From: Amoebidium appalachense
Taxonomy: Eukaryota > Protista > Ichthyosporea
Length of the DNA stretch: 64,000 nucleotides
Direction: 5' to 3'
Assembly: GCA_963693365.1 (NCBI GenBank)
Contig: CAVNZM010000002.1
Coordinates: 3,364,259 to 3,428,258 of the forward strand
A program made the translations under genes and the position numbers. Below the pieces are notes generated by a model, which worked only from the letters and a program-made list of their open reading frames with translations, did not search any database and was not told where the DNA came from. This document shows, piece by piece, positions 54,701-57,700 of the stretch (position 1 is its first letter; every line of letters begins with the position of its first letter).

Positions 54701-57700
54701 CCCCCCCCCCCCCCCCCCCCCCTTATCCCCGCCACACACCCACAGCAAAAGAGGAAACACACCACAAAGCACAGGGCAAAAAAATAGACCAAGAAAAGAC
54801 ACAGAAAGACAAAAAAAAAAAAAAAAAAAAAAAAAAAAAAAAACTAACCCCCCCCCCCTCCCCCCTCCCCCCTCCAACCCCCCCCCCCCCCCCCCCCCCC
54901 CCCCAAAAAAAAAAACACCAACAGATTGCCTGTTCCAGATTAAACCCCCCCGGCGCTACTCTGCGCTCAACCAGTACAGACAGCTGGTCGAGGATGCACA
55001 CAGCAACGACCCCATGCGCCTGGAGCAGCTGCAGGTGTGTGTGTGTGTGTGTGTGTGTGTGTGTGTGTGGCGTGTGTGCGTGCGTGTGGTTGCACGTGCG
55101 TGGGCGTGGGCGTGGGTGTGGGCGTGCGGATGGGTGGGTGAGTGGGGGGGAGGTGGAGGGTGGAGGGGGGTTGAGTTGGTTGGGTTATTTTGTATTTCTA
55201 ACGTCATCATGATCAGTACTACTATTTCTGTTGTTGTCTTTTATGGTGTGTGCTGAGTGGACTAGAAGGGACGGAAGGATGAAGGTTAGAAGGGTGTGTG
55301 TGTTGTGTGTGTGTGTTTGGGGAGGGGAGGGGGGAGGGGGGGGAGGGGGGAGAGGGAGGATAAGAGGGAACTGTTGCATGAACTTATCACAATTCTACCA
55401 TCCTCACTCTCCCTCTCCTCTCCGTCCATCCCTCCCCGTTTGCCCCTCCCTCCCCCCCCCCCCCCCCCCAGCCCCCCCCCCCCCCCCCCTCCCCCCTCCC
55501 CCCTCTTCTCCCCTCCCTCCCTCTCTCTCGCTTCCTCCCTTCCTCCCTTTTTGACACATCCCCCCCCCCCCCCCCCCCAGCGTGCAGTACACCGGGAGGA
55601 GGAACAATACAATGAAGACTGTAAGGAGAGGCTGGGCTCGGCAATACGCTATGGGGAGGAAATACAGGTGAGATATACTTGAAATTTATGTGTGGGGTGG
55701 TGCAACTTTAACCCCCGGCCTTTCCCACTGCCCTTGCCTGCATAAGCAACCCTGCTCGTCTCTGATCAAGACGGGTGACCTACCCATGTTCAAGTGAAAC
55801 AGTATCTGAGTTGGGTTTCGTTAACGAGGGGAATAGGTCGAAACTCGGGTACTGTGGATGACGTGGCCCCCCCCTGAGGATGGGCTCTGCTTATTATGAA
55901 CTCTTTATGTATGGCTTGCATTCTGCATCATGTTATCCGTTTGTTCTTGTGTAATTCGTACTTTTTGACGCATTCAAACCCCCCCCCCCCCCCCCCCCCC
56001 CCCCCTTCTGCTCAGCTGTGGCACGTGAAGAGCAACAAGTGTCTGACGCACAAGCACACACCGGCCAACCTCGAGAAAAGCTCCACGAAGATATACCTCG
56101 ATCCCTTCGGAAATGAGGTCCCCCTCCCCCCCCCCCCCCCCCCCCCTCCCCCCCCCCCCCTCCCCCCCCCCCCCCCCCCCCCCCCACAAAAAAAAAAAAA
56201 AAAGAAAAAAAGAAAAAAAGGGGGGGAGGGGGGAGCAGGATATGCTGACTAAAGCAAAAGAAGAAAGAAATGGAGTTAGAAATTACACTGAGAAGTTGAA
56301 GGGCATAACAGCGTATACCTTTGGCCTCCCCCCCCCCCCCTCCCCCCCCCCCCCCCCCCCCCCCCTTCTTTTTTTGGGCCTCCCCCCCCCCCCCCCCCCC
56401 CCTCGCCCCCCGGGGACTGTCAGTCGGTGGTGGTGATTTTGGTGAGGGTGGTGGTGGGGGTGATGGTGTGTGTGTGTGTGTGTGTGTGGGGGGGGGGGGG
56501 GGGGGGGGGGGGGGGGGGAGAGGGGGATGGGGGGGCAATTTTCCATGCCGCCCTAGTGGGCTAGAAAAGTTGTGCTGCGTTGAGTATGGAGTGGTAAGGT
56601 CGGAGGGGTTTGAGGAGGGGAGGGGGGATGAGGAGCAGCAGCAGAAGGGAGGAGAGAGAAGGGCTCAGCTAGCCTGTTTGCAAGGATTTCACGACCGGCT
56701 CACATACACCCACTTACATAACTGTACACGCACATGTACAGACACAGGCGCACACTTGCGCCAATCCACCCACACCCACCCATGCGTACACACACACACA
56801 CACACATCAGAACACACACGTACATGTACATAGGCGTGCGCGCACGTGCACACGGGTACACGCACAAACACACACACACACACACACACACACACACACA
56901 CACACACACACACACACACACACACACACACACACACACACACACACACACACACACGTACACACATACACACACCCGTGCATACACGTACGGCTACCCC
57001 CCCCCCCCCCCCCCCCCCCCCCCCCCCCCCCCCCCCCCACCTCCACTCCTTCCCGTCCTCACATACACATACACACACAAGTATCAGCCAAACAGGCACA
57101 CATTGAACATGCCAACACGCACCAACACATACCCCAATGGGTCGTACAAAACCTTTGACTCACCCAATCACCCACACCTACATTGCCACCACCACCCCTG
57201 CCCCCCCCATCCCCCCCCATCCCCCCTCATCCCCCCCCCCCCCCCCCCCCTCCCCCCCCCCCCCCCCCCCCCCCCCCCCCCCCCCCTCCCCAGCCATGTT
57301 GTTTTTATTTTTATTTTTATTTTATTAAAAACTCTGATTCCCACATAAGTTCACATTTATTAATAATATCCACACAGAACTCATGCATGGAGCTACGGCC
57401 CAAGCACAAGTTCCGAGCCATCACAGACCACGTGCACACCAATGACGTAGTGATGCTGGTGCTGAGGGATGGCAGCTATCTGCACTGCAGCGAGATGCAT
57501 GTGGATGATAACGACCATAGCTGCCTGGAGGTCAATGCATCGCATAATAGGACCGACTGGACCGTAAGTATTTAATTGCTGGTGAATTTATTATAGTTTG
57601 TTTTAATTACTTATTTTATTTTATTTTATTGTTTTAGGCTTCATTTTCTTCCTCTTAGCTTTTTGGTTATAGAGTTCTTAATCTTTCCTTGTTTCTTTCC

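Follow-up and report, generated by a model that had tools for sequence, protein, structure and literature searches.

Hammerhead ribozymes can be described by three sequence blocks, S (cleavage site), G (GAAA) and C (CUGA), as defined by Eckert 2023 (PMC10085705). Types I, II and III, which are covered by Rfam families, have the circular block orders C-G-S, G-S-C and S-C-G. The same work describes a non-circular order, type SGC, which cleaves in vitro at 0.007-0.19 per min and requires a fourth helix. Its block C is assumed to be uninterrupted beyond 1-2 nt, stems II and III are coaxial, and no SGC ribozyme was found in the genomes of known organisms. It is a puzzle that the fourth helix meets stem III without a linker in some of these RNAs although the ends are far apart. 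We analyzed a stretch of 64,000 nt from the ichthyosporean Amoebidium appalachense (contig CAVNZM010000002.1, positions 3,364,259 to 3,428,258; referred to as the window). To judge from their sequences, the copies of a dispersed repeat in this window very probably share a conserved hammerhead fold. Their block order is S-G-C, and block C is opened between A9 and G10.1.

The repeat also resembles Penelope-like elements (PLEs). According to Craig 2021 (PMC8557442), canonical hammerheads are lacking in Naiad and most Chlamys elements, and eight Naiads contain a half core from which GAAA is separated by 35-50 nt. Elements of both groups are 5'-truncated and form partial tandems; Chlamys elements often target (C)n, and Naiads prefer (TA)n. 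Hammerheads of other PLEs have been argued to act as dimers, their in vitro activity being low (PMC4209133).

The predicted hammerhead fold of the repeat copies

Four full copies of the structured motif were found in the window with nhmmer (A at 55742-55894 on the plus strand, B, C and D), together with eight fragments. Compared to A, identity is 97% for D and ca 72% for C, and B is the most diverged copy. The core nucleotides C3-U4-G5-A6-N7-G8-A9, G12-A13-A14, A15.1-U16.1 and H17 are present in all four copies, in the order site-GAAA-CUGA. Stems I, II and III, with the pair G10.1-C11.1, surround this core and are complete in A, C and D, while B has a mismatch at 16.2. A sequence-only reading of the window had proposed this core in a permuted, pseudoknotted topology that separates A9 from G10.1 by an inserted helix and hairpin. 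It had also placed the helices in A, B and C, noted the flaw of stem III in B beside the core and mentioned a near-identical copy at 26 kb, which is D. All of this was recovered. That the fold fits no standard type is correct for types I-III; the order itself is not new, because it has been published as the experimentally active type SGC (PMC10085705). Similarly, the "extra helix" of that reading exists (helix e, both sides of which change in 5/8 pairs) and is the fourth helix already published for type SGC. The kink-turn, the palindromic loops, the helix that hides G8-A9, the repeat unit and its intronic location, which are described below, are absent from that reading.

The copies differ in sequence and keep their pairings. 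The closing helix P0 is AUAAGCA/UGCUUAU in A, C and D, and CUUGAACA/UGUUCAAG in B. Stem II is represented by GACCUA/UAGGUC, GACCC/GGGUC and GACUC/GAGUC, each of which immediately precedes GAAAC. Stem I is GGG/CCC in A, B and D and GGAG/CUCC in C. Stem III has 13 bp in A and D and 9 bp in C. Spacing is maintained despite the sequence divergence (31/31/31/32 nt from A15.1 to C3; 35/35/36/34 nt from G10.1 to U16.1).

Compensatory changes are present in stems I, II (among A, B and C) and III, in helix e and in P0. In a four-row MAFFT alignment, both sides change in 14 of the 45 pairs, and 96% of the cells pair, compared to 34-45% in slid controls. These figures are support and not a significance test, as the structure was derived from the same sequences and only three rows are truly distinct. 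The covariation claimed in the sequence-only reading is supported to that extent; it does not extend to helix b, which is invariant in all four copies. In public DNA contigs, the stem II substitutions T55781C and A55835G both occur (unphased). None of 15 frequent substitutions in these contigs falls on a core nucleotide, a weak constraint since few would be expected there. By itself, CUGANGA is at chance level in the window (21 observed, 24 expected). A descriptor for the whole core, which allows any block order, matches three of the four copies (A, C and D); it scores C as the form with an intact block C and misses B due to the mismatch at 16.2. Among 60 block-shuffled windows, the split form was matched in none and the intact form in two. 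The folding z-score is good for C (-2.8) and unremarkable for A (-0.9).

None of the copies matches an Rfam family at the gathering score, nor at E<=10 over 55650-61000; in the window, only tRNA and low-complexity internal ribosome entry site (IRES) matches were obtained. The published SGC descriptor demands that stem II directly follows CUGAUGA, that N7 is U, that stem I has at least 4 bp, and that the linkers have at most 8 and 15 nt (PMC10085705). It cannot match these copies because its limits for stem II, N7, stem I and linkers are exceeded. The motif would be missed by this descriptor, in line with the sequence-only reading, where standard descriptors were expected to miss it probably. 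A pattern for hairpin h1 had no match among metagenome contigs. The pattern GAAAC...CUGANGA was found at 8 viral and at least 117 metagenome loci. Among the at least 125 loci listed, none scored as a homologue (best nhmmer E 0.005); stems I and III are marginally present in five, with a weak upstream stem II as well in one. These loci were taken as chance matches. Two other assignments of the motif were rejected. In a type II reading, with a local hairpin after GAAA as stem III, stem I cannot form (by eye), and C lacks the hairpin. A box C/D small nucleolar RNA (snoRNA) is not supported by Rfam, and neither A nor B has conserved boxes, so that only the kink-turn core is left.

From 5' to 3', copy A consists of P0, helix b, hairpin h1, the 5' strand of stem II, helix e, the kink-turn, the stem III strand with U16.1 and H17, stem I and a linker with a hairpin. 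It continues with the 3' strand of stem II, GAAA, stem III, helix e, stem I, CUGAGGA, a U, helix b and P0 (Table 1). Helix b would keep the opened block C together. The loop of h1 is UGAUCA (55763-55768) in A and D, UUGAUCAA in C and UUGGCCAA in B. A kink-turn motif, as defined in PMC5061560 (Huang and Lilley 2016), was recognized by eye in all four copies, 16 bp from the core. It consists of a 3-nt bulge ending in U (AGU in A, CUU in C and GUU in B), followed by G.A and A.G. Both GA dinucleotides are invariant, while the flanks vary. A and D carry A.G at 3b.3n, as does the well-folding HmKt-7, whereas this position is U.U in C and A-U in B. To judge from these pairs, the kink-turns of C and B may need protein or tertiary support to fold.

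A further helix of 7 bp, termed the OFF helix, can form between GCUCGUC and G8-A9-UGGGC (in A, 55879-55885 with 55754-55760). It competes with h1 and would hide G8-A9. The two forms are within 0.4-4 kcal/mol of each other, and the OFF helix is preferred only in D. The h1/OFF-helix bases are identical in all copies, which could be explained by a double duty of these bases.

Table 1. Repeat copies, fragments and elements of copy A in the window
Feature	Position	Strand	Remarks
P0, 5' strand	55742..55748	+	pairs with 55888-55894; in B, both partners differ in 3 pairs
Helix b, 5' strand CCC	55750..55752	+	pairs with GGG 55882-55884, one U past A9
Hairpin h1	55755..55775	+	directly 5' of G10.1; self-complementary loop; predicted dimerization site
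Stem II, 5' strand	55777..55782	+	G10.1 = 55777; pairs with 55834-55839; upstream of the cleavage block
Helix e, 5' strand	55784..55792	+	pairs with 55859-55866; forms the C-stem of the kink-turn and corresponds to the 'I' helix of type SGC
Kink-turn	55793..55798	+	bulge 55793-55795; G55796.A55858, A55797.G55857, A55798.G55856
Stem III strand	55799..55812	+	13 bp with 55843-55855; U16.1 = 55811; H17 = U55812; predicted cut after U55812
Stem I, 5' strand GGG	55813..55815	+	pairs with 55871-55873; just 3 bp in A
Stem I-II linker with hairpin h2	55816..55833	+	self-complementary loop UCGUUAACGA at 55818-55827
Block G	55834..55855	+	stem II 3' strand, G12-A13-A14 = 55840-55842, A15.1 = 55843, stem III strand
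Stem I 3' strand, CUGAGGA (55874-55880), U, b and P0 3' strands	55871..55894	+	
Repeat copy A	55698..55977	+	5'-truncated unit, then (C)n; sense in IP3-receptor intron, ~30 nt past 5' splice site 55668
Repeat copy C	60503..60914	+	between two (C)n runs; sense in IP3-receptor intron ~59924-60982
Copy C core	G10.1 60678, H17 60714, G12 60746, C3 60780	+	predicted cut after U60714
Repeat copy D	25937..26242	-	sense in KH-domain gene intron ~26575-25734
Copy D core	G10.1 26139, H17 26104, G12 26076, C3 26042	-	predicted cut after 26104
Repeat copy B	14688..15075	-	diverged subfamily; predicted cut after 14887; followed at 14462-14236 by a decayed copy in partial tandem
Decayed 5'-truncated fragment of the B subfamily	10897..11017	-	E 1.6e-9
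Two fragments	18507..18782 (18782-18693, 18640-18507)	-	partial tandem parted by (C)n
Three decayed fragments	59416-59485, 61324-61388, 62034-62153	+	sense in IP3-receptor introns; E 0.004-0.04; individually uncertain
Weak fragment	3235-3275		individually uncertain

The carrier repeat and its probable relation to Naiad elements

The window comes from a eukaryote rich in introns, which are of the GT-AG type; it has 52% GC and contains long microsatellites. The repeat unit has ~280-410 nt. Its 5' ends are scattered between positions 212 nt upstream and 105 nt downstream of the predicted cut, and none is at the cut. The full copies stop at a C-rich run, as do most of the fragments whose 3' end is preserved. 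Two regions, at 14.2-15.1 kb and 18.5-18.8 kb, contain partial tandems. A reversed-window control gave one match at E 0.01, and hence four of the fragments are marked as individually uncertain in Table 1. In two public DNA runs, 2025 and 2911 contigs match copy A with a summed depth of ~1e6, compared to 8-75 for long single contigs; the repeat family is very abundant, contig depth being no copy number.

Variable 5' truncation, a fixed 3' end, partial tandems and a microsatellite target, which is (C)n as in Chlamys, are shared with Naiad and Chlamys elements (PMC8557442); the repeat differs from these in that no open reading frame (ORF) was seen in it. The carrier is probably of Penelope-type origin, likely the 3' end of a non-autonomous retroelement of the Naiad/Chlamys type.

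Derivatives of the repeat were seen in public records. A contig of run X2 on 55780-55877 is a deletion derivative, with the stem II 5' strand fused to the GAAA block; the cleavage block is lost and the 3' kink-turn strand is kept. Another joint, in X1 and X2, bears a telomere-like TAGGG repeat. Records of X8 and X13 over 55825-55910 represent a further high-depth subfamily, which starts 13 nt past the predicted cut and is altered in the region of e and stem I. Their depth (168-1380, compared to 2-10 for other contigs) was not used as expression evidence, the RNA status of the records being a guess.

Naiad consensus sequences (File S5, PMC8557442 supplement) were read by eye at 28/62 CTGATGA, 14/23 CTGACGA, 14/43 CTGAAGA and 25/25 CTGAGGA places, and also in further passages and at some 3' ends. 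Core words broken by line ends are missed in this way, and the following numbers are not a census. A non-circular hammerhead order was found in 13 of the 54 sequences. The split S-G-C layout is seen in six of them (Naiad_Plae, Obim, Ovul, Naiad-3_Chem, EuTe, which was assigned from its place in the file, and, near part 12, an unpinned family). These have a hairpin or short stem 5' of G10.1 and a helix straight after CUGANGA. Seven others have an intact C-S-G form with a fourth helix (Parc, Naiad-1, -2 and -3_Nbra, Hpol and, by file order, Hcon and Asuum). Four of the eight half-core cases of Craig 2021 resolve as complete non-circular hammerheads, and some of these Naiad ends are listed in that paper merely as HHR_core or HHR_half_core. 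The stem sequences vary between the families and are unrelated to those of the window copies, which could not be aligned to Naiad ends with the means used here. As far as can be read from the sequences, this variation supports the topology much more strongly than the window does. The octopus Naiad pair has a kink-turn at a distance of 5 bp from the core, and its bulge is located on the opposite strand. The loop of the unpinned family is identical to that of copy B (UUGGCCAA). The Ptep and Smim Naiads have stems I and III, with stem II being unclear, and Esco is degenerate. No complete motif was seen in ~600 letters of the ends of Naiad-1_Chem, -2_Chem, -4_Chem, Dcar, CGi, Sdum, Lpol, Ppla and Naiad-3_Dst. 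The 3' end of Naiad_CGi, where no hammerhead was seen, has a GC-rich nested element. By eye, this element is a candidate for a hepatitis delta virus (HDV)-type ribozyme.

The gene for the inositol trisphosphate (IP3) receptor was called from Pfam matches at 57336-57572 and 58745-58888, with exon ends set according to GT/AG and frame. Its upstream exons are putative and were assigned by likeness. Runs of (C)12+ have a sense:antisense ratio of 45:2 in this gene and of 12:4 in the KH gene. Selection for the sense orientation of the repeat copies was considered and rejected, since the strand bias of these runs accounts for the orientation. The whole window contains 94 (C)12+ runs and 66 G runs, and ~35% is of low complexity. 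Host genes are those for the IP3 receptor (53590-64000, plus strand), a multi-KH protein (24994-31270, minus strand) and a BCS1-like ATPase (38300-43110, plus strand). In addition, there is an exon of the fatty-acid hydroxylase or sterol desaturase family (46521-46838, minus strand). A tRNA gene (28162-28233, minus strand, 59.9 bits, CUC anticodon by eye) is located in sense within an intron of the KH gene. An open frame of 1018 aa (178-3234, plus strand) is mostly coiled coil, has only weak Pfam matches and partly reads through a microsatellite. An inverted repeat of 156 nt (42621-43488; 95% complementary, arms 556 nt apart) overlaps the BCS1 gene region.

Predicted cleavage by one copy or by two

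Each RNA would be a rod, with P0, helix b and h1 holding the halves of block C at the base. The tip would consist of the cleavage site and GAAA, borne by helix e, the kink-turn and the 16-bp stem III arm. In the sequence-only reading, the apical loop was thought to dock onto the basal junction of its own molecule. This was examined with a rough geometric model, which has rigid rods, coaxial stems II and III, a paired arm, a kink of 50 degrees (PMC5061560) and general helix constants. In this model, the gap in a monomer is at least 37-39 A (29-32 A for a 30-degree kink), compared to ~13 A for a 1-nt linker. Because the gap exceeds the reach of the linker, docking within a monomer is unlikely, and docking between two copies is likelier. 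A short-armed octopus Naiad closes as a monomer in the same model; the arm of the copies exceeds it by roughly one helical turn, and only on the side of stem III. According to ViennaRNA, homodimers are 11-14 kcal/mol below two monomers, via h1 in A, B and D and via h2 in C. When the loops are permuted, the native h1 loops rank among the best 4-10% with regard to the energy gained by dimerization.

We lean towards a split-CUGA S-G-C hammerhead on a Naiad/Chlamys-type 3' end, which would cut after GUU only as two docked copies. A need for a dimer, which is suggested by the palindromic loops, is somewhat favored. Docking of one copy, via its tip, onto the base of another would create stems I and II. 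The kink-turns would let two copies close as an antiparallel dimer, with the palindromic h1 loops pairing on the two-fold axis, and this pairing would also disfavor the OFF helix. In a tandem transcript (an ORF flanked by pseudo-long terminal repeats, pLTR-ORF-pLTR, or a partial tandem), cleavage would trim the template for retrotransposition. A lone copy in a host intron would remain uncut. The silence of lone copies would explain that sense insertions in genes are tolerated and that sequence is kept on both sides of the cut. It is tempting to speculate further, albeit with less than even confidence, that this is an obligate-dimer ribozyme which counts copies. Two rods, each bent at its kink-turn, would be held together by a kissing contact of their palindromes and would build each other's active sites, tandem transcripts would be cut and single intron copies would be silent, and the wider family would be the missing ribozyme of the Naiad clade.

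Several observations weigh against this explanation. GUU is a weaker cleavage triplet, and stem I has only 3 bp in A, B and D, while the Naiad examples have 4-7 bp. An energy gain upon duplex formation is common to all hairpins, clear loop palindromes are present in only 2/6 split Naiads, and the geometry is crude, being a rigid-rod estimate with general constants. None of the eight fragments starts at the predicted cut (offsets -13 to +105). Past 3.3 kb, the window has 308 unmasked open stretches, and the 300 longest of these contain no remnant of a reverse transcriptase or a GIY-YIG domain. In the accessible Chlamys passages of PMC8557442, the fold is not present, though (C)n targeting is a Chlamys trait. 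Minimal PLE hammerheads cleave poorly even as dimers (PMC4209133). Published SGC RNAs with 0-nt linkers cleave co-transcriptionally, a dimer not being invoked in the accessible text (PMC10085705); in that paper and its supplement the word 'kink' is absent, and 'dimer' occurs in references only.

The same ribozyme on the same carrier might cleave as a monomer, which we consider unlikely while regarding it as a serious contender. Helix e and the kink-turn would then melt, being stabilizers of an inactive rod, or else the invariant GGCUCU two nt past A9 would serve as stem II, resulting in an ordinary SGC ribozyme with a 2-nt insert. This alternative strand, a further point against the dimer model, pairs over 6 bp in B (one G.U) and in C (three G.U) and over 4 bp in A and D, and it is in this intact form that the descriptor scored C. 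Short-armed Naiad forms can close as monomers in the geometric model, and SGC constructs cleave during transcription (PMC10085705). Nevertheless, it is the upstream strand, and not the invariant downstream one, that shows covariation with the 3' strand of stem II. A downstream strand of more than 2 bp is lacking (by eye) in Naiad_Plae, the two octopus Naiads, EuTe and Naiad-3_Chem. A helix equivalent to e, which would have to melt in one version, is required for cleavage by SGC-3 (PMC10085705).

It is improbable that the copies have no useful cleavage rate and that their fold is merely left over from an ancestor or serves as a structural signal, e.g., for reverse transcriptase or an L7Ae-family protein. 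The core is also complete in 13 Naiad families from several phyla, and three diverged subfamilies keep all core nucleotides and pairs while their loops change. Such conservation stands against the 3-bp stem I, the GUU site, an OFF helix so close in energy, the mismatch adjoining the core in B, the persistence of sense copies in introns of two genes, and the fact that no fragment begins at the cut. Even more remote is a carrier that is not Penelope-derived, either an intron-borne small RNA (snoRNA-like, its kink-turn being bound by Snu13) or a circular retrozyme dispersed by a different reverse transcriptase. The kink-turn is conserved, a partner element was not seen, and the three full copies in identified genes are all in sense within introns. 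This bias, however, follows the target (C)12+ runs, and the combination of a fixed 3' end at (C)n and 5' ends truncated to varying extents is in keeping with PLE insertion. Moreover, there is no Rfam snoRNA match, nor are there full tandem monomers as in retrozymes.

Comparison with described hammerheads

Two features are absent from PMC10085705, namely the opening of block C between A9 and G10.1 and the kink-turn at a distance of 16 bp from the core. Searches of open-licence PMC and bioRxiv, most subscription papers being outside this scope, brought up no description of a split-core hammerhead, a kink-turn hammerhead or SGC/CSG forms in Naiads. In their accessible parts, PMC3088659 has short core insertions only and bioRxiv 10.64898/2026.07.22.740005 type I hammerheads only. 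The opened CUGA block breaks the stated rule of an uninterrupted block C (PMC10085705). Non-circular permutations move from unassigned metatranscriptomes to high-copy eukaryotic genomes, and a testable answer to the apparent absence of hammerheads in Naiads is provided. Intermolecular docking would solve the puzzle of Eckert 2023 concerning the linker-free joint between the fourth helix and stem III. If the dimer model is true, a natural ribozyme gated by dimerization and having an L7Ae-type site would be a ready switch for RNA engineering.

With type SGC (HRIMA-1 and variants, PMC10085705), the copies have in common the S-G-C order, a complete core, a U after A9 and a fourth helix (helix e in the copies) that connects stems I and II at their far ends. 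They lack the intact block C of that type: the covarying stem II strand is ~100 nt upstream, and after A9 there is only the weaker, invariant alternative strand. They also differ by the kink-turn, the 16-bp stem III arm, a stem I-II linker of 18-20 nt (~3 in SGC) and their size (~155 nt, compared to at most 104). While the copies are a high-copy repeat of a eukaryotic genome, SGC was not found in genomes of known organisms, as far as that source goes. Compared to Naiads, the bend is 16 bp from the core, whereas it is 5-8 bp away in Plae, the octopus pair and the unpinned family, and the polarity of the kink-turn is opposite to that in the octopus Naiads.

Reportedly, work by Lunse in 2017 dealt with the minimal type I hammerheads of PLEs and retrozymes. 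Non-LTR retrozymes consist of tandem monomers, each with a type I hammerhead, whereas the copies analyzed here are dispersed and have the S-G-C order. The minimal type I hammerheads of canonical PLEs and non-LTR retrozymes (PMC4209133) share with the copies the location in a terminal repeat of a retroelement, a predicted dependence on dimers, a palindromic element and an extra nucleotide after A9. In the PLE type I dimer, the block order is circular and the short stem III is swapped between the molecules. In the repeat copies of Amoebidium appalachense, by contrast, stem III is long and intramolecular, and it is stems I and II that would be intermolecular.

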